Shown here piece after piece: positions 4,565 through 61,900 of a stretch of 64,000 nucleotides of DNA. The position numbers and the translations under genes were made by a program. The notes beneath the pieces were generated by a model. That model did not search any database, was not told the origin of the DNA, and was given only the letters and a program-made list of their open reading frames with translations. The first letter of the stretch is position 1; each line of letters opens with the position of its first letter. Source of the DNA: a virus; IMG/VR virus record IMGVR_UViG_3300034374_008984, positions 1 to 64,000 of that record; one strand, written 5' to 3'.

Positions 4565-4912
4565 ATGGCTGTCACACCAAACAAGAACGGTCAACATGTC
4601 AGGATACGGGTGATCTGCATCAACGATTCAGGCCGACCTTCCGACATTCCCAAGTCTAAGTGGCCCGTCAAGGGAAAACACTACACGGTAACATCCCATG
4701 TCGTGATGCACAGTATGGGAGGACGTATCGGTGCGACTCTTGAGGAGATCTCTCTTGATGGGTGTTTTCCCTACAAGTACTACCTCGCGGACAGGTTTGC
4801 GATACCTGCAGATGACATGGAGGCGATTTCCCGTGCCGCAGAGCTTCTCAGAGAGGTTCAAAAGGAGTTGGACAGGTTGAGTATCGAGGAAACCGAACTG
4901 GACCCAGCGTAG
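4565..4912 (+). CDS. Hypothetical protein
   Basis: ORF downstream of promoter box TAGATTTG (4533). Confidence 0.7.
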   Translation: MAVTPNKNGQHVRIRVICINDSGRPSDIPKSKWPVKGKHYTVTSHVVMHSMGGRIGATLEEISLDGCFPYKYYLADRFAIPADDMEAISRAAELLREVQKELDRLSIEETELDPA

Positions 4913-26895: not shown

Positions 26896-27554
26896 ACATG
26901 AACTTCGATGATTTCCTCCGCAAGGAGGCCGACAAGAGTGGATTCCAATGGAATGACGTTTCAGAGTGGACTCCCGAACAGCTCGCCGCAATGTGGCACA
27001 AGGCGGGGCAATCCATCGTGGGGCCGTCCTACAAAGATGTTGACCCGAACCTCACACAAAACCTCGTGAAGTACCTCCTCCGTGATGAGTCCTTCGATGG
27101 GAACCTTGACAGGGGCATTCTGATAATAGGCAACAACGGGACAGGCAAGACCATCTACATGAAGATCCTACTCATGCTCCTCACCTATCTGCACTCCAAG
27201 CGGACGCCCTCTTACTCAGGGAAACAGATAGAGGCCAATATGAGGCTTCCAGAGGATGAGCAGGGAAGAATAGACGTGCAAAAGGCACTCCTTGCCCCGA
27301 CATTCTACTTCGATGATCTCGGGGAGGAGCTTGACAGGGTGATGGTATATGGTACCTATGTGGAACTCGGAAAGGATGTCCTGACACAGCGCTACGAGGA
27401 GTTCACCTCCAAGGGCTCCCTTACATTCGCCACCTCGAACCTCAACATGAAACAGATAGAGGACAAGTACGGGTATCGAGTGGGAAGCCGCATGCACGAG
27501 ATGTTCAATGTGTTCATCCGCAAGGGGGAGGACATGAGAAAAGGATTTGTGTGA
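26892..27554 (+). CDS. DnaC/IstB-like AAA+ helicase loader
   Basis: Walker A GNNGTGKT, Walker B FYFDDLG, TSNL, YG.R..SR..EM. Confidence 0.85.
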   Translation: MNMNFDDFLRKEADKSGFQWNDVSEWTPEQLAAMWHKAGQSIVGPSYKDVDPNLTQNLVKYLLRDESFDGNLDRGILIIGNNGTGKTIYMKILLMLLTYLHSKRTPSYSGKQIEANMRLPEDEQGRIDVQKALLAPTFYFDDLGEELDRVMVYGTYVELGKDVLTQRYEEFTSKGSLTFATSNLNMKQIEDKYGYRVGSRMHEMFNVFIRKGEDMRKGFV

Positions 27555-28171
27555 TGAGGGTGCTAAATCTGTATGCCGGTCTTGGAGGAAATAGAAAAGA
27601 TTGGCAAGGAGTAAAGGTGACGGCTGTTGAAATGGAGCAGCAGATAGCTGACGCATACAAGCGCCTGTATCCTGATGACGAAGTAATAGTGGGAGACGCT
27701 CATAAATACCTGAAAGAAAACTTCCGACACTATGACTTCATTTGGAGCTCGCCACCGTGTCAAACTCATAGCAGAATGATGAAAGCCACCCGGCACGATG
27801 TCGCAGATTACCCCGATATGAAACTCTACCAGGAAATCATATTTCTTCAACACTTTTTCAAAGGAAAGTGGGTTGTGGAGAATGTTAAGCCCTACTATGA
27901 ACCGCTTATCCGTCCAACCGTCAAAATGGGCAGGCACTACTTTTGGGCAAACTTCACTATTTGGCCCATTAAGATAGGCTCTCCAAAAAAGTTCATTACA
28001 GCCGGGACTACCGAAGAAACACAGGCATTGAAGGATTGGCTGGGCATTCAGTATGATGGCAACATCTACTACAAGAACAATCATTGCCCGGGACAAGTGT
28101 TACGAAACTGCGTCCACCCAAAAGTTGGAAACCACATACTCAATGAATCAACCCGAAACGGACTCTTCTAA
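27554..28171 (+). CDS. Compact C5-cytosine DNA methyltransferase
   Basis: LNLYAGLGG, SPPCQ and VENV motifs. Confidence 0.85.
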   Translation: MRVLNLYAGLGGNRKDWQGVKVTAVEMEQQIADAYKRLYPDDEVIVGDAHKYLKENFRHYDFIWSSPPCQTHSRMMKATRHDVADYPDMKLYQEIIFLQHFFKGKWVVENVKPYYEPLIRPTVKMGRHYFWANFTIWPIKIGSPKKFITAGTTEETQALKDWLGIQYDGNIYYKNNHCPGQVLRNCVHPKVGNHILNESTRNGLF

Positions 28172-29650
28172 ATGACCACCCCCCGCAAGACCTCCTTCCC
28201 GGCAATCCCCTCCTTAGAACACGTTAAGGTTCCTCCCAACGCGGTCGAGTTGGAGGATGCCGTTCTTGGTGCCTGCCTATTGGATGCCGACGCGTTGTCC
28301 GAAGTCTCCTCCATTCTCCGGCCCGAGATGTTCTACAAGTTGGAGCACCAGATGGTGTTCTCTGCTATGATGTCCCTTGAATCCGAGGGGAATCCCGCAG
28401 ACATCCTGACCGTGACACAGAGATTGAAAAAGGACGGGAACCTCTCCGTTGTCGGAGGGGCGCATTTCGTGTCAACCCTAACGGACAGGGTCGGTAGCGG
28501 TGCCAACGCGGAATACCACGCAAGGATCATCGCCCAGAAGTTCATTGCAAGGGAACTCATACGGGTGTCGGGAGACATCTACGCGCAGGCGTTCGATGAC
28601 ACGATAGACCCATTGGAACTCCTCGACAGGGCCAATGACGAGGTGGCCTCCATCGGGTCTGACGTTGTGGGAGATGCAGTGGAATCCAATCAAGACCTTC
28701 TTAGGCAGGTGATAGAGGACTCCGAGAGGACGGCCTCGGGGGGGAATGTCATCGGAACCCCCATCGGACTCCGCGAATTGGACATCAAAACAGGAGGCTT
28801 GCAGGAGGGCCACTTGGACATCCTTGCAGGAAGGCCCGGCATGGGCAAGAGCTCCTTCGCCATCTACGAGGCGTACAGGGTGGCGTTCTCGGAGAAGAAG
28901 ACCGTGCTGTTCTTCTCATTGGAGATGCCCGCGAAGGAAATCATGCAGAAGATCCTTTCGATTCACACCGGCATCGACTCTTGGAAACTGAAGACAGGGA
29001 AGCTCGACCCCGAGCATTGGAACCGCATCAATGCCATGTCAGGGGAGATTATCAAGGCCCCCATCACAATAATCGACAACATCTCGGAGTGGTCCAAGGT
29101 CAGGACGAAATGTGTGAACTCCAACAAGAAGCAGCAGATAGGGCTTGTTTCCATTGATTACCTGCAACTCATACAGATTTCCAACAGGAAAGGCAACAGA
29201 GAGCAGGAAATAGGGGAAATCAGCAGGGGGTTGAAGCAACTTGCCAAGCACCTGAAATGCCCCATCCGTGCCCTCGCACAGCTATCGAGAGGAGTTGAGA
29301 CAAGAGGTGGCAACAAGAAGCCTATGCTGAGTGATTTGAGGGAATCCGGCTCAATCGAACAGGACGCGGATAGTGTCACCTTCCTGTACCGCCCCGAGTA
29401 TTACGGCATAGAGTTCTCCGAGGAGGGAAACCTCCCAACGAACGGCCTCTGCGAGGTCATCATTGCCAAGAACAGGGGAGGACTGACGGGAACGGTTCCC
29501 GTTCGGGTGAACCTCGCAACAAGCACCTTCGAGGGTTGGGAGGGAGGTTCCTTCAAGGCCCCGTCACCGCCACCCATTGAGGAGGTGCAGAGATGGAGCC
29601 CCATGCCGAGAAGCACCGAGTTCGATGACGATGACGGGAACCCTTTTTGA
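28172..29650 (+). CDS. dnaB: Replicative DNA helicase
   Basis: GRPGMGKS, FSLEM, IDYLQL, AQLSR, SDLRESGSIEQDAD, KNRGG. Confidence 0.97.
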   Translation: MTTPRKTSFPAIPSLEHVKVPPNAVELEDAVLGACLLDADALSEVSSILRPEMFYKLEHQMVFSAMMSLESEGNPADILTVTQRLKKDGNLSVVGGAHFVSTLTDRVGSGANAEYHARIIAQKFIARELIRVSGDIYAQAFDDTIDPLELLDRANDEVASIGSDVVGDAVESNQDLLRQVIEDSERTASGGNVIGTPIGLRELDIKTGGLQEGHLDILAGRPGMGKSSFAIYEAYRVAFSEKKTVLFFSLEMPAKEIMQKILSIHTGIDSWKLKTGKLDPEHWNRINAMSGEIIKAPITIIDNISEWSKVRTKCVNSNKKQQIGLVSIDYLQLIQISNRKGNREQEIGEISRGLKQLAKHLKCPIRALAQLSRGVETRGGNKKPMLSDLRESGSIEQDADSVTFLYRPEYYGIEFSEEGNLPTNGLCEVIIAKNRGGLTGTVPVRVNLATSTFEGWEGGSFKAPSPPPIEEVQRWSPMPRSTEFDDDDGNPF

Positions 29651-29738
29651 AAAAAAAATAATTTTAACAGAATAAAGTATATCCAAAAAGCGTTCCCTAC
29701 ATTTGAAGCCTCAAACAGGAATGTCAAAAAAAACCATC

Positions 29739-30194
29739 ATGGCAAAAACAGCAGTAGTGAAAATCGAAGAGAACACCGAGGACACGTCCCTTCAGGGCAT
29801 CCTCAATAGTTTGTCCCACAACGAGCGTCTTGATTGGCTCGAAACGAATGCCTTCTCCGTGAAGGATGAGGAGTATCATGCCCCGCTCTCTGCGGAGGAA
29901 CTTGACGAGGTGAAGGGTTTTATCACTCAGCAGAACATCAAGTTGCAGGAATTGGAAGACAAGAAAAATAGGTTCATGGAGGAGCTCAACGCTGAGTTGA
30001 AGCCCGCCAAAGAGAAACTTGAAGTGGCCGTTCGCGAGGCGCGCTCAAATGAGCGTCAGGGCTTTGGTAAGGTGTACTACGTGCCGAACCACGAAGAGGG
30101 TATCACTTACAAGGTCACGGAAGGGAATCTTATCGTAGGCAGCCGCCCGATGCGTTCCGAGGAGCGTCAGATGAATCTCCTTGCCAAGGTGTAA
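29739..30194 (+). CDS. Hypothetical protein
   Basis: ORF after promoter box TACATTTG (29698). Confidence 0.75.
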   Translation: MAKTAVVKIEENTEDTSLQGILNSLSHNERLDWLETNAFSVKDEEYHAPLSAEELDEVKGFITQQNIKLQELEDKKNRFMEELNAELKPAKEKLEVAVREARSNERQGFGKVYYVPNHEEGITYKVTEGNLIVGSRPMRSEERQMNLLAKV

Positions 30195-30210
30195 TGAAGT
30201 TGGTTCCTTT

Positions 30211-30399
30211 GGGGAGGTGGCGAAAGATAGACGCTATGTATCCTTTAGAGTTGACTGGTAACGTATGTACCTCATCAATGGGCGACAATCCACCGATAGG
30301 TTTGAGGGAAGACAACGTAGCAGATTACAGGAAAGGTGAGGAGCTTATGCTGAACCTCTAAACTTCAACTCGTGCAGGTATCAAATCCTGTCCTCCCCA
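30211..30399 (+). ncRNA. 189-nt tRNA-like RNA with a large inserted domain
   Basis: Acceptor GGGGAGG/CCTCCCC-A; D-like arm GCG..CGC; T-like arm GCAGG-TATCAAAT-CCTGT; internal helices. Confidence 0.65.
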
Positions 30400-30552
30400 T
30401 CGGAATCACATTCAAGAGTAATTCAACAGTAAAACCAATTATCAGCCTCAAGAGGATTGCCAGTCAGGAACAGGCTGGAAGAGGATGACAAACGGGAACA
30501 GACCGCTTGCCAACGGAGAAGAAATCCGTGACACCTCGGAAAGACGGGTAAT

Positions 30553-30626
30553 GGGGACATAGCTCAGTTGGTTAGAACGGTTGCTTTGCAAGCAATAGGT
30601 CGGGGGTTCAAGTCCCTCTGTCTCCA
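30553..30626 (+). tRNA. tRNA-Ala(TGC)
   Basis: Full cloverleaf, anticodon loop TTTGCAA, G3:U70 pair, discriminator A; CCA not encoded. Confidence 0.93.
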
Positions 30627-30759
30627 CTAAAGCGCAACACGTGCAAACCGTGCCCTACCCGTATTTAATCGCGCGAGGCTCGTGGCTCAGAAACCACAAG
30701 CCGATTTTTTTTCGGCTTTCATGTCGAGAATCCAAAAACTTTCAATTAACTTTGTCTCA

Positions 30760-31323
30760 GCTTTTGGGAGGGAGCTAATTGAGATGTTGAAATAGGATTT
30801 TTAGAGCTCTACGCTCGGACCCGCCAACATGTCAACAGCTCCTTCCCAGAGTAAGCATAAGACGGGTCTTTTTTTTGCCCTGAACTGAGATGATGCAGGT
30901 GAAAGAGTACTGCACTACCAATGTTCGGGAACAGGACAAAGAACCGCAGCAGAATGAAGGAATACGGGGTCGGGATAGTAACGGCAGCCCATTTCATTCT
31001 GTGCTACTGTGGGATGCGTGAAGCAAACGGGGAGAGCAAGGAGAGAACCCCAAGCGCACAGGCGGCAGGAAAGCCTGGAAGTTCCTCTCGAGTCGTCTGA
31101 CACTGCCTGTCAGCGATGTGGGCGATAGGGGGGATGGCTCCGTTTAGGAACATTTTTCAAAATCGACTTCCACGGCTCTCACAGGTGCGGAAACGCGCTT
31201 GGGAGGCGAAGCCGTGGGACTCCTGAAAGAATTCACCATTTAGGAATTACCCTTTACAAGGTATTTCCTAAAAAAGTATCCATTAAAGGGAATTTTATAG
31301 AAACACTTTTATAGGGATACTTT
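30760..31323 (+). ncRNA. Candidate large structured non-coding RNA (~570 nt)
   Basis: Promoter box TAACTTTG at 30747, no credible ORF, at least 8 helices visible. Confidence 0.6.
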
Positions 31324-31418
31324 CATCTATTGCCCAAGCTATGCCTCAGAAATAGATCAAAGAAAGGATTTCCCAACCGAGGTATCTTTGCAGGGAACCC
31401 ATTCAAGAACCTTGCAGC

Positions 31419-33434
31419 ATGAACAGTAACGAGTACGAGATAGAGACAAGCCAGCCCGACCCCGAATCGGGAGCCTCTGAGCACGGCAAGGAGGCAACGT
31501 CCATCCCTAAGCTGATCCTCCCTGCACCGATACCCGTCAGGCCACCCAAGTATTCTCGGAATCAGTACGAGGAGGAACACAAGGAGTGGCTCAGAAAGAA
31601 GCGAGGGGAATCGGCATGGAGAACTGAGCAAAGGAGGAGATGGAAAGAGGGGTTTGCGGGATTGACGGGAATCCACTACTTCTACATTACCCAGATGCGG
31701 ATAAAGGACGCGGAGGGAAATCCCATCCGGCCCATGTGGAGGGATGTGGACGAGGAAATCTTCCGAGAGTTCGAGCTGTGCTACAAGGACGAAATCGACT
31801 TCTACGTGTTCAAGAGACGTGAGGTGGGACTTTCATCCGTGTTCGGAGGTGCGATTCCATTGTACCTCCTCATCATGTACCCCAACAGCACCTCGCTAAT
31901 GACCTCCGCTGACCTTACCCGCGTGAAGGACCTCATGGCGAACAAGCTCATTGCCCAGCACAGCTACCTTGAGGATTGGGTAAAGCCGAAAAGGAAGACC
32001 TACGACCCGCAGAAAGGGGCCACGTTCTTGGAGATTGACGAGGACGGCAACGAGACAGGGAACATGGCCGAGATTGTTTGCAGGCAGACATCGCAGGATA
32101 AGAAGGACGTGACCAACTTGGAGGGCGCAAGGGCCAAGTATGTGTTCCTTGACGAGCTCTTCCTTCACCCGTACCCCGAGGAGGTCCGCTCGTCAGCCCA
32201 ATCGTGTCTCATGTCGGGCATGGAAAGAGTTGGGATCATGGTGGCGGGAGGTAGCGCGGGTGCCGTGTCGAGGCTCGGACTGAAACAGGCAAGGGAAATA
32301 TCTCAGAAGGCATTGACGGGAAGCCTGAGAATGCTGTTTCTGTCGGGGGCGAAGGGGATAACAGCCGCAACGATACGAGATGAGAACGGAAAGAAGATAG
32401 GCACGGAGAACTTCTGCATAAACGGATGGTCGGACGTGGCGCGGGCAGAGGCATACATTAAATGGCAGAGAGCGATACTTGACCTGAGCCCCAACAAACA
32501 GGAACTCATCTCATTCACCAAGAGGTATCCGCTCACGCTCGAAGAGGTACTCACGTCAGACGATTTCGGGGTGATTCCAAGAGACATTGCCGAGCAGATA
32601 CCCGCACAGGAACTCGAACTAAGAAGCAACCCAAGAAACCTCAAACGGGTCACGATAACATTCGAGAACGGGAAGCCAACTTTCAGGAACGACAGCAGAG
32701 GCGCGTGGCTCATCCTTGAACACCCGGTCGCTGGAGAGTACTACTGGATGGGAACGGACGCGATTCCCATGATGGCAAAGAAGGCTGAGGCCACAATAAA
32801 CCCCGATGGAACGGAGCGGTCGATGCACTGCTCGGCCATTAAACGGAAAGGCACCAACAGCTACGTTGCCATATATCTCCGCAGGACATCCGATGTGGAC
32901 CTCATATTCGATGAGATGTTCGCAGCTCAACAGGCATATAACAACTGCCAGAACATGATTGAGAGAAACTCCGCAGGACTCATCTACGATAGATACTCCC
33001 GTAGCGGAAACCTCAAATACCTCGCGTATCAACCAGAAGCGTTCGGCTCCAAGGGATTCAAGAAGGGAACCGTCAGGGGAGTACACAAGGACGGGCACAA
33101 CTCGGAAAGGATCTACAACGCAGGGTTCGACTACTTCAGGGACAACATGCGCCTCGTTGACTTCCCTATCATCCTCGAACAGCTCAGAGTGTTCGGCTCA
33201 GAGAACACGGACGTGATTGACGCGATAATGATGTGCGAGGTGTTCCATAAGTATCAGGAGATCTCAGCAGGGGAACGCGCTGTCAGGGCCATGAAGCAGA
33301 CCTACAAATACCAACCCTACATCACATACGAGAACGGGAACCGCGTAGTGAGACACAAGAAGGTGGCCGTCAATTCGGCAGGTCAAGTAATAGGCCCCCA
33401 TCAAGGAATGACACCACTGACAGGATTATTGTGA
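31419..33434 (+). CDS. terL: Terminase large subunit
   Basis: KRREVGLS (Walker A variant), VFLDE (Walker B), nuclease GTD ... IERN ... DVIDA; upstream of the portal; promoter box at 31383. Confidence 0.88.
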   Translation: MNSNEYEIETSQPDPESGASEHGKEATSIPKLILPAPIPVRPPKYSRNQYEEEHKEWLRKKRGESAWRTEQRRRWKEGFAGLTGIHYFYITQMRIKDAEGNPIRPMWRDVDEEIFREFELCYKDEIDFYVFKRREVGLSSVFGGAIPLYLLIMYPNSTSLMTSADLTRVKDLMANKLIAQHSYLEDWVKPKRKTYDPQKGATFLEIDEDGNETGNMAEIVCRQTSQDKKDVTNLEGARAKYVFLDELFLHPYPEEVRSSAQSCLMSGMERVGIMVAGGSAGAVSRLGLKQAREISQKALTGSLRMLFLSGAKGITAATIRDENGKKIGTENFCINGWSDVARAEAYIKWQRAILDLSPNKQELISFTKRYPLTLEEVLTSDDFGVIPRDIAEQIPAQELELRSNPRNLKRVTITFENGKPTFRNDSRGAWLILEHPVAGEYYWMGTDAIPMMAKKAEATINPDGTERSMHCSAIKRKGTNSYVAIYLRRTSDVDLIFDEMFAAQQAYNNCQNMIERNSAGLIYDRYSRSGNLKYLAYQPEAFGSKGFKKGTVRGVHKDGHNSERIYNAGFDYFRDNMRLVDFPIILEQLRVFGSENTDVIDAIMMCEVFHKYQEISAGERAVRAMKQTYKYQPYITYENGNRVVRHKKVAVNSAGQVIGPHQGMTPLTGLL

Positions 33435-34135: not shown

Positions 34136-34828
34136 GTGGGCAAAATAAATAACTTATATACAGCAGAAGCATTATCATTTATGAAGGAAATGAATGATAA
34201 CTCTGTTGACATAATAGTAACATCACCACCGTATAATTTAATGGGGCAATACTCTTGTAAATCACAAATGAACAGAAGTTTTACAAGTAAAAGGCTTGAA
34301 GATTGGTATGATGATAAAATGGATGAAAAAGAATACCAACAATGGCAAAAAGAATGTGTTAGGGAAATGGTTAGAATATGTAAAGGAAGTGTTTTTTACG
34401 TGCATCAAGTTAGATATGCTTGGGGTAGAAAAAACGAGTTTTACCACCCTATACATTGGTTAAATGAATTTGTTATATGGTCTGAAATAATTTGGAATAG
34501 AGGAAATGGTATAAGTGCTGCAAAAAGACCAACAATGGCTGACCAAAGGATTTATATGATTGGTAAACCTAAAGTTTGGAATAAGCCAAATTGCACAAGT
34601 GTTTGGGATATACCTTCTGTTAGAAATTCTAATCACGTTTGTCCATTTCCTGATGAATTAGTAGAAAGATGTTTAAATATGTGTAGTAATGAAGGCGATA
34701 TTGTTTTTGACCCATTTGTAGGTATAGGAACAACAGCAAGAGTTGCTAAAAAAATGAATAGAAAATATATTGGTGTTGATATAAATGAAAATTATATAAA
34801 CGAAGCTAAAACCAAATTGCTGACGTAG
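34136..34828 (+). CDS. Amino-DNA methyltransferase, beta class, probably N4-C
   Basis: TSPPY before DPFVGIGTT; HVCPFP. Confidence 0.88.
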   Translation: MGKINNLYTAEALSFMKEMNDNSVDIIVTSPPYNLMGQYSCKSQMNRSFTSKRLEDWYDDKMDEKEYQQWQKECVREMVRICKGSVFYVHQVRYAWGRKNEFYHPIHWLNEFVIWSEIIWNRGNGISAAKRPTMADQRIYMIGKPKVWNKPNCTSVWDIPSVRNSNHVCPFPDELVERCLNMCSNEGDIVFDPFVGIGTTARVAKKMNRKYIGVDINENYINEAKTKLLT

Positions 34829-35001: not shown

Positions 35002-35715
35002 ATGACAGAAGATAATTTACATACAAAAGTTGATTTGGAAAACGGAAGCCCCGCTTTTGCCAAACCCGTGTTATACGCTGGGGCGGGTATCAAGGCAAAC
35101 ATTTCAATTTATAACGAGGACTGTTTGCAAGCATTAAAGGCAATGGCAGACAAACAATTTGATTTAGCCATAGTTGACCCACCTTACGGAATAGGAGCAG
35201 AAAACCACGCAGGCAATAAAGATAATGGATGGACACAATGGGCTAAAAAAGATTGGGATAAGGCAATACCAACGGCTGAATATTGGGAGCAACTTTTTAG
35301 GGTAAGCAAAAATCAAATTGTTTGGGGTGCAAATTATATGACGGAATACTTACCACCTAAAATGGGTTGGATTGTTTGGGATAAAGGGCAAAGGGATTTT
35401 AGCCTTGCTGACGGAGAACTTGCTTGGACTTCATTTGATAAAGCAATGAGGATATTTACTTACGCAAGAGCAAAAGCATTAAAGGAAGGTAAAATACATC
35501 CAACGCAAAAGCCGACTGATTTATACAAATGGCTTTTAGATAAGTATGCAAAGCAAGGCGATAAAATCCTTGACACCCATTTAGGAAGTGGAAGTATTGC
35601 CATTGCCTGCTGGGATATGGGTTACGACTTAACAGCCTATGAAGTTGATAAGGAGTATTACGATAATGCTTGCAAACGATTAGAAACGCATAAGTCTCAA
35701 TTAACGCTATGGTAG
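35002..35715 (+). CDS. N6-adenine DNA methyltransferase, beta class
   Basis: DPPY, HPTQKP, DTHLGSGS. Confidence 0.9.
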   Translation: MTEDNLHTKVDLENGSPAFAKPVLYAGAGIKANISIYNEDCLQALKAMADKQFDLAIVDPPYGIGAENHAGNKDNGWTQWAKKDWDKAIPTAEYWEQLFRVSKNQIVWGANYMTEYLPPKMGWIVWDKGQRDFSLADGELAWTSFDKAMRIFTYARAKALKEGKIHPTQKPTDLYKWLLDKYAKQGDKILDTHLGSGSIAIACWDMGYDLTAYEVDKEYYDNACKRLETHKSQLTLW

Positions 35716-51529: not shown

Positions 51530-54500
51530 ATGGCAGACAAGATCACGCGCATAACCCCTGCGGGGAACATGGACAAGGATTCCGACCCAAGGTATGTCGG
51601 AAAGGGAGAACGCGCAGGAGATTACCTCGATGCAAGGAACATTCAAGCAGTATCCGAGGACGGCAACCTGCAAGGCTCCGCTATACCTACAAAGGGATGC
51701 GTATTAGGCTTTGACCTCGGCAGCGTCACTCAGCAGAACAAGCGGTACAGGATATTCCTTGACGGGGATGCCACGAAGCAGCACGCGGTAAGGTTCCTCT
51801 CTACGCAGCGGGACGCGAACATACTTATCGGCACGGGGCCGTTACCTGGTCAGGCGGTTGAGTTCAACGGAACGGTCGCAAGTTGCGTGGCAGCATTGCA
51901 AGCAGCGGGTAACGCTGGGGTGATGACCTTCTCAGCGACAGCCACAACGGTTGACGTTACGATGACCGCTTATCCGATGTACCAATGGTACGCGGAGAGC
52001 GTTGGTCAGGACGTTGTTCAGGTGACATGCGTGGCGGAGGCCATACCTGTTGACCTCGCGGGGCCGCTAAAGGACATCGGCAGCTACGACTTACTTGGAG
52101 ACCTGTTCATATTCAGTACGACTCAGGACAACGAGCCGACAGAGATAGCTCCCGACATAATCCTTGTAGGCCCGACATCGGGAGGAACATACATAGGCCC
52201 GCTCACGAGTTTGCTCTTCAACGGCAACCATGGACTTGTTCAAGGACAGTGGATACGCATCACGGGCTCGAACGAGTCGTTCCTGAACGGCCTGTTCGTG
52301 GTGAACTCAGTAGTGGATGCCACTCAGATAGAAATCGTGACGGTCACCGCGTGGGGAGTCAGTCCTCCCGTGACCACCCTCGGAACCCCGCAGGTGTTCA
52401 TCCACCCGACAGGCATCGGAGAGATAGGTGTCGCTCAGAAGGACGACAACACTGATTCGTGGACTTACACGAGATTGCTCCGGAGCGTGGAGTTGAATTT
52501 TGTGAGTCGTTGGCAGGTGGATTCCGATGGGGAAAAGGAGGTTAATGAGGTGTCCATCTACTTTGATGACGATTACAATAATTACAGGAGAATATATTAC
52601 AAAGGCGATTACGTCACCGATGGGCTTCTCGGCTTTATTGGGGCAGGGAATGATTATTCATACGGGAATATCAATTCTCAGATATACGGATTCAGTCCTA
52701 AGCCTTATGTGATAATTGATTATGACGGCCAATCGAACCCGGGTGGAAGTCTGGTGTCCGGAAATTACAGGTACTTTTTTGTCTTCAAGGATTTTTCTGG
52801 CAATGAATCCAATCCATCAGACCTGTCAGGTGTTGTCGTGGTCTATTCTGATGAGGAAAATTCCCTTGCCATAGGTGACGATGCGGGAGTGACAACCAAC
52901 AAGTTGACAAGGTTGACTGTCAGTGGGATTGATACATCGGTATTCTCTCAGGTCGCGCTCGGATACGTGAACAACACGCTTGGGGTTCTTTCCGCTAACA
53001 TAGGCCCTTTTCGAGAGGTGTCGGGGGTTGAAATGAGTTTTGTCCATACTGGGTTCGAGGAGTTCATTCCTTACGATGTGGCCGTATTTGCGTCTCAATG
53101 GAACTCTTTGAACTATGACTTTGCAAAGAACATCCGAATAATAGACCAACGGATTGTGAGGTCGAATCTTAGGAAGCCAAGATATGCTGACCTTGAGGAT
53201 TTTTTCGCTTCATTCAAGCACTCTGTATGCGTTGAAAGGATAGATGGCACACAGGCCCCGTCCGCATCAAACCCTGCTGGGGAGTTCAAGGACACTTCAA
53301 ACGTGTTCTACAAAAAGGGGTATATGTTCAATGAGACCTATCGGTTCTCGGGTAGGGTCGTTTTTAACAACGGTTCAATATCGGACTGGTTTTGGATTGA
53401 TGACATCAGAATCGACCCACTCACATCAAACGCGGCAAATCCCAATGATGACAGGAGAGACCAATCCTCCCCCAACATCGCCACGTCATACGACCTTACA
53501 GAGAACATACCCGGGATAGCTATATCCCAAACAGGCAGAAAGACCCCGGACGGCAGCGTTTTCGATTCCAATGGCAACCTTGTCAGCAACCCGCAGAATG
53601 GTGTCGGGGATTATTTCTCCGATTCAAGGTATTTTCACAAGACCGTGCTCGTTCCCTATGTGGAGTTTTTTGGAGCAAACATAAATGCACCGATAAACGG
53701 CACTCCCTTATCCTCATTGATTTCACATATAGAAATTGGCAGGTGCGAGGTCGTCAAAGAGGTGATTGCAACAGGTATGGCAGTGTCCTCTGTTCGGATA
53801 ACAACATCAGATGACCTCAACGTGCCCGGGGAGGATTTTCAATCTGTTCAAGGCATTTTGAGAGGGCCTTCACTTGTGGGGACATTTTCTATAATAAACC
53901 AAGGCTCTAATCGTCTCCCGGACACAAGGCTTGGTCTTGGAGTGAGGACCGGTGACAGGGATGGGGTTTTTGAGACTTTTCACGAGTATCCATACGTGTA
54001 CTCTTCATTTCCTATGACAAGGATGGTAACAGGCTCAACCCCTGCTTCGTCTGCGCTGCCATTCATAACGACTCACCTTTTGGAACACTTCGTTGTGACC
54101 TTTCAGCCTGAGGGTTCGTGGGTGAACACGTTCCAAGGCTTCAATGACGGGTCAACCCCACCGGGTGTTTCTGTTTACTACCCATCCGCAAACGGTGTTG
54201 ACTTCTGCATGAACGACATACCGACCACTGAGGAGGATTCCATTGGCACATCAACGACTCTGAACAACTTCGGAAACAGGTTAAAGTCTGAGAGGAGATA
54301 CCACACCATATATTCCCCTGATCTGATATTCGGGCAACAACAGGAATTTGAGCCATCAACAATATCTTCTGTAATAGATTTCGGGGAGGCTTTTCTTGAC
54401 ATGACTCAGTTTTCAAATACATTTTACTGGAAAGCTGTTTCAACAGGGAGTGAGGATGTTCAGATTCCATCATGTGTCAGTAGATACATCCCTGAGAACA

Positions 54501-56569
54501 TGGGTACATCATTCAACGAGTACACCATAGACAGAATCTCAATAATCGGGGCGGGGGAGAGGGTTAATATGGACGGCTTCAATGGATTCAGGAAGGCACA
54601 TGACGCCTTTTCATTCTTTGCCGGGCAGTTTATCGGTGGGCCACCCCCAACCACCCGAAAGATTGGTTATGAAGGGTTATGGAAGATGATTGAAAGCCCG
54701 GTTGTTTTCACTGAGAATAATGGCCTCGGCATAGTTTCTCAGGGTAAAAATCCCGACCACGGCATCAGGTACATTCAACTGTTCACGAAAAAGGATGACA
54801 AGTACGGGGATAAATCCGAATCCACATACCTCACTACAAACACTGTTCTCGACATCAGGGAAAGAGAACCTTTCGGAGATATACAGCCGGGAGAGATAAA
54901 AGTTTTCGGAGGAGACACTTACACACAGCAATCCTATCTCAAGACCAAATTTTCAGATGTCTCCGTGAGTCCGGGTGCAAATGATGGAGAATGGAGCACT
55001 GACGACACCCTGATGTCCGCAACCAAGGGACCTGGGTTCGGGGGAGGTCTTTTCGTCTATACCCAAAACAGGGTCAACTCGCAACTCAGATTCGACACGG
55101 AAGATCAGTTCATTCCATTGAAGGATACCAATACGCTCGGTGAGTGGGCATGGGATTTCCGATTACTTGATAGGCACACGTATTCAGGAATATATGACGG
55201 TGACGTGTCGGATGGCCTTACTCAGGCATCAGGAAACGAGGGTCTTGACCCAACGAGATTTGATTTCCCTTCAAGGATCGTATGGTCTCAGAAGAAAATC
55301 TACGGGGAACTTTCCGACTCGTACGCGATGTTCCTTCCTTTTGACCTGAAAGACCTTGATCTCAGGTTCGGGGAAATAATGCACCACGAGAATGTGAACG
55401 GTGAACTATTCACTCTTCAGTTGCGGAAGTGGATGGCGCAGCTCTTCAACACCCGTGGAGAACTCCAAGTGTCGGGCAATGCGATAGGCGCAGTCATCGG
55501 TGATGGCTCGGTACTTTCCCGTGACGGGCAGACCCTTTCCCGCTACGGCACGGAGAACAAGTGGTCATGCGTCCTTGGAACGAGCCAAGGCGGCAAGGAT
55601 GTCCTCTATTGGTTCAATGCCGAGAACGGCCTCTTTCTAAGATTCGGTGCAGACGGCACGGTAATAATCTCCGACACAAGGCGTTTCAGGTCGTTCTCCA
55701 ACAAGGCCGCCAAGTGGGTTCGCGGGAAGGATGCCCCCGCATTCGAGCAAGGCATCAGGGCCGTGTGGGACGACCGCAGCAAGGAGGCCATCTGGACATT
55801 CACCGGCTGGAGAGATGTTGCGGAGTGGGCCCGTCCTGGCGTCATCATCCCGTCCACAACAGAAGGCACCGTTGTCAGCAACCCCAACGCACCATCCCTC
55901 ACCTACGAAAACCTCCCAAGGTTCTTCAAGGCAAAGAGCACCCACGCTAACCTCCTTTCGAGAGAGCCGGGGGTCGGGGCTGATTGGCAGGAGTTCTTCG
56001 AGGAGATACCCGTGACGGACACCGACTACTACTCCGTGTTCACGGTGGCCCACAACGAGATGACCAACGGCTTCAAAACGTTCTACGGGCACATCCCGAA
56101 GACCTACTTGAAGTGGCGGGACACATTCCTTTCAAGCCACCCCATATTCAGGAACCTCATCTTTGAGCACAGGAAAGGGGATTACTGCACATGGTACGGT
56201 AATGAGGCAAAAGGAATAGCCCCAAAGATCGAGGACGCCCATGTGGAGATGGTCGTCAACGAACTCCCCGAGCAAAGCATGAGAGGGGTCGCTGTCAGCT
56301 TCCTTTCGGACAACGCCCCCGACAGAGTTGATTTTAGCACCCCGAGACAGAGAACATTCTCAGAGTCTCAGGACTTTGTCCGCAGGGATGATCAGTACTT
56401 CGCGCCTATAAGAGGAGATGTGTCTCAGGGCCTTGCACCGAACCAAAGCAGAGTTGCATTGTCGGGTGATTACTTGCGTGTCAAGTTCACTATCTTTGGC
56501 GGGACTTACAACCTACTTCACAGCATCATTGTCAAGATAAGGGACAGGATGCGAAGGATAAATAACTGA
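51530..56569 (+). CDS. Tail stabilisation / muzzle protein (P22 gp10-like, crAss-like)
   Basis: 1679 aa; MDKDSDP..Y.DARNI start, FGGDTY, FPSRIVWS, GDYLRV end. Confidence 0.7.
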   Translation: MADKITRITPAGNMDKDSDPRYVGKGERAGDYLDARNIQAVSEDGNLQGSAIPTKGCVLGFDLGSVTQQNKRYRIFLDGDATKQHAVRFLSTQRDANILIGTGPLPGQAVEFNGTVASCVAALQAAGNAGVMTFSATATTVDVTMTAYPMYQWYAESVGQDVVQVTCVAEAIPVDLAGPLKDIGSYDLLGDLFIFSTTQDNEPTEIAPDIILVGPTSGGTYIGPLTSLLFNGNHGLVQGQWIRITGSNESFLNGLFVVNSVVDATQIEIVTVTAWGVSPPVTTLGTPQVFIHPTGIGEIGVAQKDDNTDSWTYTRLLRSVELNFVSRWQVDSDGEKEVNEVSIYFDDDYNNYRRIYYKGDYVTDGLLGFIGAGNDYSYGNINSQIYGFSPKPYVIIDYDGQSNPGGSLVSGNYRYFFVFKDFSGNESNPSDLSGVVVVYSDEENSLAIGDDAGVTTNKLTRLTVSGIDTSVFSQVALGYVNNTLGVLSANIGPFREVSGVEMSFVHTGFEEFIPYDVAVFASQWNSLNYDFAKNIRIIDQRIVRSNLRKPRYADLEDFFASFKHSVCVERIDGTQAPSASNPAGEFKDTSNVFYKKGYMFNETYRFSGRVVFNNGSISDWFWIDDIRIDPLTSNAANPNDDRRDQSSPNIATSYDLTENIPGIAISQTGRKTPDGSVFDSNGNLVSNPQNGVGDYFSDSRYFHKTVLVPYVEFFGANINAPINGTPLSSLISHIEIGRCEVVKEVIATGMAVSSVRITTSDDLNVPGEDFQSVQGILRGPSLVGTFSIINQGSNRLPDTRLGLGVRTGDRDGVFETFHEYPYVYSSFPMTRMVTGSTPASSALPFITTHLLEHFVVTFQPEGSWVNTFQGFNDGSTPPGVSVYYPSANGVDFCMNDIPTTEEDSIGTSTTLNNFGNRLKSERRYHTIYSPDLIFGQQQEFEPSTISSVIDFGEAFLDMTQFSNTFYWKAVSTGSEDVQIPSCVSRYIPENMGTSFNEYTIDRISIIGAGERVNMDGFNGFRKAHDAFSFFAGQFIGGPPPTTRKIGYEGLWKMIESPVVFTENNGLGIVSQGKNPDHGIRYIQLFTKKDDKYGDKSESTYLTTNTVLDIREREPFGDIQPGEIKVFGGDTYTQQSYLKTKFSDVSVSPGANDGEWSTDDTLMSATKGPGFGGGLFVYTQNRVNSQLRFDTEDQFIPLKDTNTLGEWAWDFRLLDRHTYSGIYDGDVSDGLTQASGNEGLDPTRFDFPSRIVWSQKKIYGELSDSYAMFLPFDLKDLDLRFGEIMHHENVNGELFTLQLRKWMAQLFNTRGELQVSGNAIGAVIGDGSVLSRDGQTLSRYGTENKWSCVLGTSQGGKDVLYWFNAENGLFLRFGADGTVIISDTRRFRSFSNKAAKWVRGKDAPAFEQGIRAVWDDRSKEAIWTFTGWRDVAEWARPGVIIPSTTEGTVVSNPNAPSLTYENLPRFFKAKSTHANLLSREPGVGADWQEFFEEIPVTDTDYYSVFTVAHNEMTNGFKTFYGHIPKTYLKWRDTFLSSHPIFRNLIFEHRKGDYCTWYGNEAKGIAPKIEDAHVEMVVNELPEQSMRGVAVSFLSDNAPDRVDFSTPRQRTFSESQDFVRRDDQYFAPIRGDVSQGLAPNQSRVALSGDYLRVKFTIFGGTYNLLHSIIVKIRDRMRRINN

Positions 56570-57361: not shown

Positions 57362-58963
57362 ATGGCAAACAACCTCAGCACAGGTATCGGGCTGTCAGGA
57401 CAGTTCGACTATTCCCAAACAGGGCTTGAACCCGTATTACAGGCGGAGCGGGACCTTGCGGGGAGACGTGCGCAGGAGCAGCAGCAGAAGAACAAGGAGA
57501 GGAAGGCTTTGCTGGACGAGATCAAGAAGGTGACCCTTATGGATCACGGCTTGAAAATCCCCCTGTATCAGCGTCAATGGGAGTCCACGATGGCAGATGC
57601 CATGACAGAGATTGTTGACAAGGCCGCAAAAGGAGAGGATGACGCTTACGCGGCAGCGTGGAACCTTCAAAGGAGAATGAAGAACTACACGCAGGACCTC
57701 AAAGCGGCTGACGAGGAGCTGTACAATGTCTATGAGGCTGTGAGGAAAAACCCTGAGAAGTATGCGTGGAACGACCCGCAGGAAATCATGGAGAAGACCT
57801 ACAACAACTTCTTTGAAGTACTGAAAGACCCGTTGATGGCAGATGTCAACAACATGAGGGAGGCCATGAAGTACTACGGAGGCACGGAGTATCTTCTTCA
57901 AGAGAACGACCCCGAGTCTATTTCGAGAGGAGCTCCCCCATTCACCGTTCACTACAATCCTCAAGAGATGGTGAACCCACTTGACTACGCCATGGAATTG
58001 GCAAAGGAGAAAGCTCAATACGACCAACTTGAAATGGGTAAGCCGTTCATGGTCGGAGGCAAGATGAGAGCAGAGGAGGTTTACAGGATGAGTCCTGAGA
58101 CAATCGGACTGCTCACTGATGAGGCGTTTCAGAACATGGGCGTTCTCAGAAATTACGAGGAACGTCTGTTCAAGAACCGTCCCGACAAGAGCATGACAAG
58201 AGCGGAGTTCCAAAAAACTGATTGGATTGAGGATGCAAGATTGCTTCACGAGCAAAAAATCAAGCCTCAGTTGCAGAGAATGGCTACAGGGCAAGGCACG
58301 ATTGACGTACCCCTACCAACCCCCAAAGAGGCCAAGCCGTCAGCCTTTGAAAGGTCATGGAGTGTTTCAGCACCAGCGCAATCTGAGTACGGCATCGCTG
58401 AAGGAGCGAGAATGGATGTAAACGAAGTGAACTTCTATCCAACGGCAGGTAGATCAAGGCAGCCCGTTAACATGCAATTCCCTGAAGGAACTCTTCAGCT
58501 TAACCAAGAAGGAGAACTCAAAAAAGTGGAGTTGTCTTCAAGCGAAGTTGTTCCCGCTGGAGTGACCTATGTAAGGAAACACACTCAGTTGTCACTCCCC
58601 GAGGGCAGGAAGCTAAAGACATTCTTCAAGTACAACGGTGACGGGATGACCTATTTCGTTCCGTTGCGACAAGGGTCTTTTGAAGAATTTGTCGGCAGGA
58701 CGGAAGCGAAACCAGATGAGGTTTACAACAAAATCAAAACACTGCACGGGGGAGACAAACAAGTTATCGAACAGTTCGATGAGTTTTTTAAGGGGCTTGG
58801 GATGACGCAGCAGGGAGGAAATCAGAAGCCATCCAGCAACACGGCAACTTCAACCTCTTACACGAACAGGCAGAAGGTTAGAGACGCCAATGGCAACTTG
58901 TTTGAAATTGGAGTAAAGAATGGAAAGTGGTATAACATAGCCACAGGAAAAGAAGTCAACTGA
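57362..58963 (+). CDS. Putative ejection (internal virion) protein
   Basis: 533 aa, helical, lacks Cys. Confidence 0.55.
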   Translation: MANNLSTGIGLSGQFDYSQTGLEPVLQAERDLAGRRAQEQQQKNKERKALLDEIKKVTLMDHGLKIPLYQRQWESTMADAMTEIVDKAAKGEDDAYAAAWNLQRRMKNYTQDLKAADEELYNVYEAVRKNPEKYAWNDPQEIMEKTYNNFFEVLKDPLMADVNNMREAMKYYGGTEYLLQENDPESISRGAPPFTVHYNPQEMVNPLDYAMELAKEKAQYDQLEMGKPFMVGGKMRAEEVYRMSPETIGLLTDEAFQNMGVLRNYEERLFKNRPDKSMTRAEFQKTDWIEDARLLHEQKIKPQLQRMATGQGTIDVPLPTPKEAKPSAFERSWSVSAPAQSEYGIAEGARMDVNEVNFYPTAGRSRQPVNMQFPEGTLQLNQEGELKKVELSSSEVVPAGVTYVRKHTQLSLPEGRKLKTFFKYNGDGMTYFVPLRQGSFEEFVGRTEAKPDEVYNKIKTLHGGDKQVIEQFDEFFKGLGMTQQGGNQKPSSNTATSTSYTNRQKVRDANGNLFEIGVKNGKWYNIATGKEVN

Positions 58964-61900
58964 TGCGGAACCAAGACCCAACCCTACCCCCACTTCCCAA
59001 AGGATTCACCGTAGTAGAATCGTCTGACGCGCCTCCATTGCCGTCAGGATTTACTCCCGTAGAAGAACCCATTGTCCCTGAAAAAAAAAGCCCTATCGGG
59101 TCATCTTCCCAAGATGGTTCGCAAGGCTTACAGGGTGCTCCATCGTCACCTTCGAGAGGTATTCAGCTTCCTGACCAGCCCTTCTCGGGATTGGGCGGGG
59201 TAATCGAACAGGACGACCCGATACTCCCAAAGGTATCCCTTGAGAGGCCACCAGTCAATCCCCTTGCGGAATACGAGCGGATAGCGTCCAAGAGACACGA
59301 ACTCCAAGCGAGTAAGGTATCCGCATTCGAGGGGCCGTTCATGGCTCTTGGAGTTGGATTGGCAGGAGGCCCCGCTGCGGACAAGTACAGGAGGGAGAAG
59401 ATTGAAGAGGGAAAGAAGGCTGTTGCGGGGACTGACAGGGACTTCAATGCGGCAAGGTCATCCGCTATGTCCGCCATAGAGAATATCGTACAGGACAGGA
59501 TAAGGGACAACGTAAAGGAGTTCACCACATCAGACCTGACAGGGGTCTCCGTGCCCGACCCCCGAAAAGTGAAGGAGTGGGCGCAGGCGGTCGCAAGAGA
59601 GAACGGACTGCCCGAGGACGGCTGGGCGTGGAAGGCACTCAATGACAAGGCCACAGACCATATCGCCTTCAAGATAGTCCAGCCGAGGGTTGATAAGGCT
59701 TTTGAGAGGATGTGGAAGGAAGAGAAGGGGAAGGAAGTGCCGAAGGACGTGCGCGAATACCTCGGAGTGAATCAGAAGGAAACCGAAATCGAGCGCGAAC
59801 TCATATCGGGCCTTTCGCAGGAGAAGGCACAGGTGGAGGCACAGGTGGAGGAGCAGTTCGCTAAGGTCACAGGCGGAATGCCCGTGCAGGAGTACGTACA
59901 GATGAGGGACGCGGCCCATGAACAGAGAATCAGAGAACTTCAATCACGGTACGCTCAGTTCATCACCCCGCAAGGAGAGTTCGCGGGAAGCCCCGAACAG
60001 TATGCTCAGTACCAATCCGAGTTCGAGACAACTCAGAAGCAGTACGAATCAGAGGTTTCAAGGACGGTGGGCGAACTTACCCAGATACAGGCCAACGCCA
60101 ACAGGAGATTCAATCGCGTCCGCATCGAACGTATCGAACAGGCCGAGCGGACCATGCAGGAGTTCATGTCCGAGAAAGAGAGGCTCGTTCCTGGGCTTCA
60201 AAAGGAAATCGAGGACACCTATCGGAAGGCATACGGAAAAGTACTCGGAGAGAACGACTCTTGGAGGGAAATCCTTTACAGGGACAACAAGGTGATGGCC
60301 CTCGGGACATCGTGGGCATCCGCAGTAGGCGGTTCTGTAAGCCGCATGGGAAGCCTGTTCGCATCCCCCGAGATGCAGTCCACGGGGAAGGCCATGGAGA
60401 ACTTCTTCTATACGGGAAACCCGAACATGGAGAAGCTGAGTGACTGGCTCGACCTTTTCAAATCGGCCCGGTCCACAGGCAACCTCATGGGCAGTATGAC
60501 CACATCGATGGTACCCGCTGTCGCAGCAGGTGTCGCAACGGGGGGTCTGGGGGGCGTGGCCCTCGGAACGATGATGTCGTGGGCAGGAGAATCAGCGGAT
60601 ATAGCGGGGGGCATCGCAGAGCGGATATACAATGAGACGGGGGATCCCGCGAAGGTTCAGCAAGGGGTGTCACAGGCATTCTCTGCGCAAGGGCTGTTGC
60701 TCCCGACCTACTTCCTTGAGATGTCCAACATCTTCGGGAAGATATTCACTGGCGGGGGGCTTGGAAGAAGGATTGCTCTCGGGGCGGGTACGGAATACGT
60801 TATAGAGACGTTATTTCAGGAATTTCCACAACAACTCTTCGAGGAATCCATTGTCGCGGGAAAAGGACTTGAAGGCGTTCTTGACAACTTCACACCAAGC
60901 AATTTTGAAAAGACAGCAGGGAAACTCAAGGATGTGGCATTGAACACTCCTTCCGTCATGCTCATGGGCGGTCTCGGTCAGGCAAGGGCGTATGTGGACG
61001 AGAAAGGATCACAGGAAAAGAGGGAGGAGCAGATAGCAAATAGGCTAAGTTCCATCAACTCAAGAATGCGGGCGGGGGACTTCACTGGCACGGACTTCCA
61101 ACAGTCGGCACTCAAACTTGCCGTTGACTTCGGTGTGTACGAGGCTTCAAAGGTGGCCGTAGCCACGTACTTCAATGGGGGCATCACATACGAGACCTTC
61201 ACAAGGATACAGCAGTCGTTGAATGACGCGAAGGAGATCACTGAAAAGGTGAATGCCATGGAAGGCATCACCGATGAGAACCGTCTGTTGTTCTCTATGA
61301 TAAACATGGAGCACCGTGCCCTTGAAAGGAAGGCCGAAAACGAGAAAGACCCCATCTTCAAGGCAAGAGCACAGAAGGAGGCCAATGAGAGGAAGGCCAT
61401 GCTCGATGAGATATTCGAGGGAGGGACACCCAACTATGCCACAGCGGAGTTCGAGGACGGCAACTTCACCGTTATGACCCCCACGGGAATCAAGAAGGCG
61501 ATGTCCAATCCAGCGTTCATGCAGGAGGTCGTTGACGGGAAGATCAAGTTCAACGCCTTTGGGAAAGATTCTCAGCAGGTCGTTGAGGAGTTCGCCAAAA
61601 CAATCAATGATTTCAAGCAGAACCAGCGGGGGAAAGTTGATGCGGACATAGCGAACAGGAAAAAGGAACAAGCACAACAAGAAGGGTACGAAGCGGAAAG
61701 GGAGGGGTACTTGATTAAGAGAGAAGAGGAGCTGGGCATCATCCCCGACATAATGGAGCCTGCACCGAAGTTTGTGACTGCTGCAATTACGCGAGTAGAA
61801 GACGACAAGCCAACAAGCCTTAGTCAAATTGAAGCGGCATCTGATTGGCTGTATTCGGAATACAAGAGAATATCCTCATTAAGAGATAATCCGAAAGAGA

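Follow-up and report, generated by a model that had tools for sequence, protein, structure and literature searches.

A structured RNA with a core resembling Rfam RF02932 upstream of the terminase gene of a freshwater virus

The locus and its gene content

The DNA analyzed here (the window) comprises the initial 64 kb of a freshwater virus record of 73,651 bp, which has direct terminal repeats and is estimated to be complete. A DnaC-like loader, a DNA methyltransferase, the DnaB helicase (28172-29650) and an ORF designated ORF163 (29703-30194) are followed by a tRNA-Ala, and from there an interval of 791 nt without any convincing ORF leads to the large subunit of the terminase (TerL). Downstream of TerL there are two further methyltransferases, the portal and then uninterrupted + strand ORFs up to the end of the window. 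The features that frame the interval are the following:

30553-30627, + strand: tRNA-Ala, anticodon UGC (ARAGORN; Rfam tRNA, 64.9 bits), a component of the RNA-bearing accessory insertion described below
30754-30876, + strand: long imperfect hairpin with a run of eight T (30869-30876); fold of 30740-30885, z -4.53
31419-33434, + strand: TerL (phrog_6681, E 4e-15), the first of a long series of + strand ORFs

The hairpin with its T8 run, located between the tRNA and the RNA that is the subject of this work, is probably a terminator (an unusually large one), and a search of the + strand from 30878 to 31418 gave no intrinsic terminator. The initial annotation had described the stretch upstream of TerL as free of ORFs, and this was borne out: the longest ORF in 30628-31418 has at most 62 aa, and none of seven small ORFs tested in the stretch matches a PHROG family.

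Other elements of the neighborhood deserve a mention. Two hairpins lie directly 3' of the tRNA-Ala (30676-30725), one of them with a T8 loop readable as a terminator of the - strand, and they have a weak Rfam match to P26 (21.6 bits, E 0.081). The three DNA methyltransferase genes of the window are found at 27551-28171, 34136-34828 and 35002-35715, the last two soon after TerL. Two very long ORFs (51530-56569 and 58963-63999) are listed with 1679 aa each, the second exceeding the end of the window.

A structured RNA on the plus strand

The segment 30890-31345 of the + strand is a structured RNA gene, present in a single copy in this phage genome. The fold of 30890-31323 reached -148.9 kcal/mol against -123.1 +/- 5.2 for shuffled sequences (z -4.95), with none of 100 shuffles as good, while the - strand gave a z of -3.97. 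The orientation is fixed by the helix P1 of the family alignment described below, the cells of which contain 72 G-U pairs vs. four A-C mismatches. The large multi-helix non-coding RNA beside a tRNA that had been proposed is therefore real, on the + strand, and the nine helices named in that proposal are all present in the sequence:

30890-31345, + strand: whole RNA candidate (folding and homology); the minimum supported by homology is 30950-31250, and similarity to the related locus L008 reaches 31345
30894-30898 and 30910-30914, + strand: TGCAG / CTGCA, read in the sequence
30920-30926 and 31148-31154, + strand: AATGTTC / GAACATT, read in the sequence
30950-30958 and 30993-31001, + strand: CAGAATGAA / TTCATTCTG, the family helix P1
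Within 31015-31058, + strand: TGCG..GGGG / CCCC..CGCA, read in the sequence
31058-31065 and 31103-31110, + strand: ACAGGCGG / CTGCCTGT, read in the sequence
31128-31133, + strand: tract of six G, read in the sequence
31170-31177 and 31210-31217, + strand: CCACGGCT / AGCCGTGG with a GAAA loop, inside the covarying terminal hairpin
31239-31246 and 31265-31272, + strand: TTTAGGAA / TTCCTAAA, read in the sequence
31273-31281 and 31315-31323, + strand: AAAGTATCC / GGATACTTT, read in the sequence

Cultured phages gave no similar DNA, either for this RNA or for two other members of its family. A search for RNA sequencing runs containing the stretch found none. The contig X20, a low-depth DNA fragment that provides too thin a comparison to build on, has two differences over 31281-31418, whereas the initial 230 nt of TerL have about 20.

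Relatives of the RNA and the Rfam family RF02932

At the curated cut-offs Rfam detected the tRNA alone, and RF02932 had no match in gathering mode. With a permissive cmscan (E up to 10, over 30400-31600), the region 30959-31093 aligned with RF02932 (Betaproteobacteria-1) at 24.4 bits, below the cut-off of 49.4, with an E of 0.031 in 1.2 kb. The Rfam core model comprises 120 nt and is filed as an sRNA gene of unknown function. The window and RF02932 have the words GGUCGGG, ACGGCAGC and CUGUGGGA in common. As a three-word pattern, these occur in 10 viral contigs and in 39 genome contigs, the latter belonging, among others, to Bacteroidota, to Acidobacteria (Bryobacteraceae) and to both Alpha- and Betaproteobacteria. 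A P1 helix of at least 5 bp encloses the words in 38 of the 51 extracts and is interrupted in the window and in L029; the remainder resemble chance matches. In all, about 40 relatives were gathered from phage contigs, Alpha- and Betaproteobacteria, Acidobacteria and Bacteroidota.

The cut-off of RF02932 was passed by five of the 10 viral loci and seven of the 39 genome loci, and five alphaproteobacterial members score 33-38 bits. In 151 sampled alphaproteobacterial genomes there were three RF02932 matches at E<=0.01, two of them without the motif words (by eye), and only one of the 151 genomes truly carries the RNA. An exact pattern taken from the 3' hairpin of the window and L008 was found in no viral contig. 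A leave-one-out covariance model (R1, built from 29 members with the window left out) matched the window at 30957-31016 with 38.2 bits (E 3e-8 in 159 kb), and matched none of 11 TerL-lineage loci (a set in which one contig is present in several copies) nor phage P4. The RNA of P4 is of the C4 type and does not belong to this family.

The region 30950-31110 is a divergent and expanded copy of the RF02932 core. The idea of a possibly new large RNA class has to be narrowed accordingly: it is not wholly new, as its core has the invariant words and the helices of RF02932. Specifically, both have a P1 loop with GGUCGGG..ACGGCAGC, a P2 loop opening with CUGUGGGA and interleaved helices after P2. In the window, by contrast, P1 is interrupted, there are insertions of 29 nt and larger, and the GGUGGCGAAG word is replaced: cmscan places GGGGAGAGCAAGGAG where the 3' part of RF02932 (the GGUGGCGAAG word and helix P3) aligns, with a 29-nt insertion and non-standard pairs. 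The RNA of the window also extends ca. 200 nt past the Rfam model, with a hairpin located between duplicated flanks. Rfam places RF02932 in Betaproteobacteria, whereas the window is a freshwater phage whose nearest look-alikes are alphaproteobacterial (L042). The Rfam model leaves out the extra pseudoknot, the inserted helices, the terminal hairpin together with the duplicated sequences on either side of it, and hosts well outside Betaproteobacteria. The name Betaproteobacteria-1 is absent from the main text of Weinberg et al. (2017; PMC5737381), the supplements of which may describe it, and a literature search on Betaproteobacteria-1 and RF02932 found no relevant paper.

Architecture of the core

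The initial annotation had pointed to covariation as one way to check the RNA, and compensatory changes do support four elements, namely P1, P2, a pseudoknot (PK-C) and the 3' hairpin. The core contains:

30950-31001, + strand: P1, 30950-30958 with 30993-31001, plus GG 30966-30967 with CC 30989-30990
31002-31025, + strand: P2, TGCT 31002-31005 with AGCA 31022-31025; the loop opens with the invariant CTGTGGGA (31007-31014)
31015-31058, + strand: pseudoknot PK-C, TGCGT 31015-31019 (in the P2 loop) with GCGCA 31054-31058
31029-31089, + strand: GGGG 31029-31032 / CCCC 31048-31051 and GAGAG 31041-31045 / CTCTC 31085-31089, interleaved (cmscan alignment to RF02932)
31058-31110, + strand: inserted helix ACAGGCGG/CTGCCTGT around the small hairpin CAGG-AAAG-CCTG (31066-31077), read in the sequence

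The loop words of P1, GGTCGGG (30968-30974) and ACGGCAGC (30981-30988), do not vary in any of the 33 aligned sequences, and the covariation of the stem is strong, with individual pairs double-changed in 10-22 of the 33. For P2, a member's own pairs reach -9.27 vs. -6.16 kcal/mol for cross pairs, a value attained in 0 of 2000 permutations (here and in the other tests the permutation controls ignore the relatedness of the sequences, and significance is somewhat overstated); the P2 of the window itself is weak, at -5.4 and just 4 bp. In each of the 29 sequences examined, the nine bases 3' of CUGUGGGA pair with a segment located ca. 40 nt further downstream (own -9.14 vs. permuted -6.75 +/- 0.33; 0/2000). 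The TGCG/CGCA pairing that had been named is thus genuine, only that it forms a pseudoknot and not a nested helix. The GGGG/CCCC and GAGAG/CTCTC helices interleave as in the Rfam consensus, with counterparts discernible by eye in other members, and this region (31029-31089) includes a 29-nt insertion relative to the Rfam model. For the inserted helix ACAGGCGG/CTGCCTGT a single compensatory counterpart was seen by eye (GCTGCAG/CTGCAGC in L042).

The other named helices fared unevenly in the comparison. CAGAATGAA/TTCATTCTG and CCACGGCT/AGCCGTGG are supported, AATGTTC/GAACATT is not (437 of 1000 permutations reach the observed value), and TTTAGGAA/TTCCTAAA, seen again only in L008, L033, L036 and L057, is not shared by the whole family (222/1000). 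The 5' arm of AAAGTATCC/GGATACTTT lies in a 10-nt gap in L008.

A chance structure, or a small protein gene that escaped recognition, would be an alternative to a functional RNA, given that ORFs of 36-62 aa exist in the region. Covariation in four helices, the failure of all seven ORFs to match PHROG families and the 1-nt indels relative to L008, which disrupt the reading frames of these small ORFs, make this explanation extremely improbable.

The terminal hairpin and its duplicated flanks

The 3' half of the RNA is a long hairpin between two copies of a lineage-specific sequence of ca. 20 nt. In the window it is organized as follows:

31128-31152, + strand: G6 tract and repeat copy M1, with GAT, GGCTCC (31136-31141), G and TTTAGGAA (31143-31150)
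31153-31230, + strand: terminal hairpin domain, closing stem TTTTTCA 31153-31159 / TGAAAGA 31224-31230 (MFE fold)
31229-31248, + strand: repeat copy M2, with GAAT, TCACCA (31233-31238) and TTTAGGAA (31239-31246)
31249-31345, + strand: 3' tail, with TTCCTAAA (31265-31272) pairing with the M2 word, the hairpin 31273-31323 and a block in common with L008 (TCTATTGCCC..CTATGCC); not family-wide

The inner stem of the hairpin carries the GAAA loop at 31190-31193, and the hairpin block is ca. 95% identical to that of L008. Across the family the two hairpin halves belong together, with -23.8 for own halves vs. -15.3 +/- 1.0 for deranged ones (0/1000).

We examined the repeat in 18 anchored members, in which GGCUCC is followed 51-102 nt later by CACCA with the long hairpin between; about 20 other family members have no GGCUCC/CACCA anchors and are left out of this count. 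The two copies read GAU-GGCUCC-G-UUUAGGAA and GAAU-UCACC-A-UUUAGGAA in the window, and the repeated word is different in other members, e.g. ACGAGCAU in L042, UCGAGCAC in L063 and AAGGAGAAAG in L026. Every anchored member has its word twice. The 10 nt located 3' of the repeat core have an identity of 6.9/10 within members vs. 3.3/10 between members, and the 4 nt located 5' of it agree at 3.06 vs. 1.49 positions, in both cases with 0 of 10000 permutations reaching the observed value. Repeats built around different cores can be made out (partly by eye) in L022, L025, L052, L059 and the Acidobacteria group.

Several anchored members (e.g. L026, L060, L021 and L024) have ACCA or CACCA directly 3' of the helix. 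The MFE folds of some members, the window included, pair part of this CACCA tail, and it is absent from L022, L025, L059, L061, L045 and the Acidobacteria group.

A complement of the repeat word was sought in cis in six kinds of segment (upstream, before each core, hairpin, core, middle and downstream), none of which was significant; for the hairpin, 298 and 246 of 500 permutations reach the observed complementarity. In trans, the one host genome searched (that of L030) has just in-frame coding matches. Lacking a covarying complement in cis, and a site in trans in one host genome, the repeat stays unexplained. A third copy further upstream can be recognized clearly in L026, and plausibly in L028, L034 and the window, but overall it is not significant (own 7.6 vs. 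cross 6.9). In L026 (ca. 260-330) the 5' end of the RNA lies just past a TATAAT box and has a third sequence resembling the repeat (GTCTGGTCACTAAGGTGAA vs. GTCTGGCTCCAAGGAGAA). Another copy of the word of the window, in a similar context (CACCCATTTAGGAAG), is found at 35567-35594, within one of the methyltransferase genes (ORF 35002-35715); as roughly one such 8-mer would arise by chance per 64 kb, this copy may be meaningless.

An accessory insertion and its genomic contexts

The comparison with other phages of the same TerL lineage gives a glimpse of how the RNA came to its present position. In the nine distinct loci with an upstream flank, TerL is 13-119 nt from the preceding ORF and the motif words are absent in all of them. 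In L006, DnaB and ORF152 are 51 and 54% identical to DnaB and ORF163 of the window. Taken together, the match with L006 and the junctions devoid of RNA show 30195-31418 to be an insertion; the RNA and the tRNA-Ala form an accessory insertion of ca. 1.2 kb that divides the ancestral ORF163-TerL junction. Among the TerL-lineage relatives only L008 has the RNA (77.5% over 249 nt, with TerL 61% identical); the similarity spans 31112-31345 of the window, including a block of about 130 nt near 95%, and the L008 contig ends short at the 5' side. Between the RNA and TerL, L008 has an extra ORF of 122 aa (230-598) without a PHROG match. Two further TerL proteins, P0001 and P0002, are 95 and 84% identical.

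The arrival of the RNA as an insertion, together with the TerL relatives that lack it, makes both roles that its position first brings to mind unlikely. The initial annotation had offered a ColE1-like primer and a packaging-associated RNA as alternatives, and the location is indeed reminiscent of plasmid primer RNAs or the pRNA of phi29-type phages, because the RNA lies beside packaging and replication genes. A primer RNA at a replication origin would suit its place just downstream of the DnaC-like and DnaB genes, the G6 tract and the one member located before a primase-helicase. The nine distinct TerL-lineage loci without RNA, the members found in bacterial defense islands and beside RHS-like genes, and the lack of conserved iterons or of an AT-rich unwinding region weigh heavily against it, and we consider it highly unlikely. 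An RNA of the packaging motor, or an element associated with pac or cos, is the least probable of all the explanations considered here: the RNA is directly upstream of TerL and TerS was not recognized, but it is no constant companion of this TerL lineage (absent from 9/9 loci), most family members are not beside TerL, and the Rfam models of such RNAs, pRNA included, had no match.

Elsewhere the RNA occurs after P4-type integrases (L030 and L050) and before TerL (L063, L029 and L022), and in L026 and L027 it is 140 nt before a primase-helicase gene, with a sigma-70-like promoter (TTGCAT-17-TATAAT, by eye). Its neighbors in bacterial genomes include a retron RT, a Mokosh-like helicase, a PLD-like protein, HsdM (L064) and a WYL protein, and in Acidobacteria it adjoins RHS-like genes. 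No protein family is a constant neighbor across the loci. In the sequences gathered, the family is always carried by phages, integrase-bearing islands or defense islands, in several phyla. The next ORF is close and on the same strand in about half of the loci and on the opposite strand in several, and between the second repeat and the following start codon there are 15 to 302 nt. A tRNA is found at less than 1 kb in two of 40 loci, plus one dubious call.

Some individual loci have peculiarities of their own. In Burkholderiales, a retron-type RT-Toprim (L061, 3057-4772), a Mokosh MkoC-like helicase (L045, 1322-5065) and a ZacB/PLD-like protein (L057, 1724-4276) mark defense-island territory. 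In L020, ARAGORN calls an 88-nt tRNA-Trp (4639-4726, - strand) that lies shortly upstream of the RNA and in the opposite orientation, and that Rfam does not list at its cut-off. One Bryobacterales genome (L065) has two copies of the RNA 1 kb apart (4838 and 5857), and the RNA of L048 (2787) is without the segment from +110 to +383, i.e., without both repeat copies and the hairpin. The idea of a template for a reverse transcriptase was also considered and rejected, as the 73.6 kb genome has neither an RT nor an integrase.

What the RNA may do

Our preferred reading, held tentatively and as a whole at somewhat less than even confidence, is that of a stable RNA, co-transcribed with TerL and then processed, that acts in trans through its knotted core. 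Transcription would start after the T8 hairpin and continue into TerL, and we infer this co-transcription because the hairpin and T8 run lie upstream and no terminator follows downstream. The RNA portion would then be cleaved free as a stable molecule. The terminal hairpin is delimited by the two repeat copies, which would therefore be sites of processing or re-pairing, and the hairpin of the window would finish in a single-stranded ACCA tail, in the manner of a tRNA minihelix. The activity itself would reside in the invariant knotted core, which would bind a partner shared by many hosts. The RNA would then serve the mobile element in trans, e.g. in host takeover or counter-defense, and have no part in packaging or priming. 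In this scheme the promoter, the ends of the RNA and its processing are inferred, and the role given to the repeat is a guess.

Several observations sit uneasily with a processed RNA. A terminal helix followed by a single-stranded ACCA, in the window and in others, does recall tRNA-like minihelices and tmRNA, but the MFE fold of the window pairs part of the tail, the tail is missing in several clades and thus not universal, and ARAGORN called only the tRNA-Ala at 30553-30627 and no tRNA or tmRNA at the RNA itself. The tRNA neighbor in just two of 40 loci (and a dubious third) further weakens the tRNA-like reading. The repeat has no complement in cis and no target in trans in the one host genome, and the close, same-strand ORF that follows in about half of the loci would equally suit a cis-acting leader.

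Such a leader is the chief rival of the processed stable RNA, and we regard it as possible, with appreciably lower confidence. The core would act on the polymerase or sense a signal, and the duplicated flanks would provide a platform of alternative pairings that gates read-through into the structural operon of more than 32 kb. The RNA heads an unbroken series of + strand ORFs, which starts at 31419 and takes up the rest of the window, with the T8 hairpin upstream and the terminator missing downstream, the promoter of L026 and L027 drives the RNA 140 nt before the primase-helicase gene, and on the same strand the RNA precedes TerL (L063, L029 and L022), HsdM (L064) or defense-like genes (L057). 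The search for a covarying alternative partner of the repeat found none, however, the distance from the second repeat to the start codon is variable, the next ORF is on the opposite strand at several loci, and Rfam classes the core as an sRNA gene. The arrangement also resembles the C4 antisense RNA of P4 CI with its a1b1 and a2b2 targets (RF01695 and RF03163), likewise a phage RNA between lineage-specific direct repeats in the leader of an operon. In phage P4 the presence of C4 and c4-a1b1 was confirmed, and the C4 model had no match in the window; the loops of C4 are complementary to its repeats, whereas the repeats of the window have no complement in the sequence that separates or surrounds them.

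Two phage RNAs that are often located near tRNAs, ROOL and GOLLD, assemble into multimers (PMC12286853). The RNA of the window shares with them a large, pseudoknotted, phage-borne structure near a tRNA and a function that is unknown. By analogy, it might act as an RNA-only assembly or decoy, i.e., a homo-oligomeric particle or a sponge that shows its word twice to a lineage-specific partner, consistent with the duplicated word of the anchored members, the phage or prophage location and the lack of a constant protein neighbor. On the other hand, the RNA is smaller (ca. 450 nt) and near a tRNA in very few family loci, the ROOL and GOLLD covariance models had no match at E up to 10 in 30400-31600, the search for a palindromic or complementary element able to bridge chains found none, and no partner was identified. 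We consider this a rather unlikely solution.

A broader conjecture, to which we give equally little credence, is that RF02932 would be the visible tip of an unrecognized class of mobile-element RNAs of 250-450 nt, with an invariant, multiply pseudoknotted core and a terminal hairpin bracketed by a lineage-specific "address" written twice. The address would be a programmable specificity element (a target mimic or guide, or else punctuation for self-processing or processing of the RNase P type) and the core a ribozyme or a machine-binding module.

Implications

The RNA is two to four times the size of the Rfam model, and its family is spread over several phyla, well beyond the listing of RF02932 as a betaproteobacterial sRNA. 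It has a feature without a ready explanation, a variable word doubled on either side of a conserved hairpin. Guide and target-mimic RNAs consist of variable words in a fixed scaffold, and for this reason the family is a good candidate for bench work. An improved covariance model would allow the annotation of the family in phage genomes.
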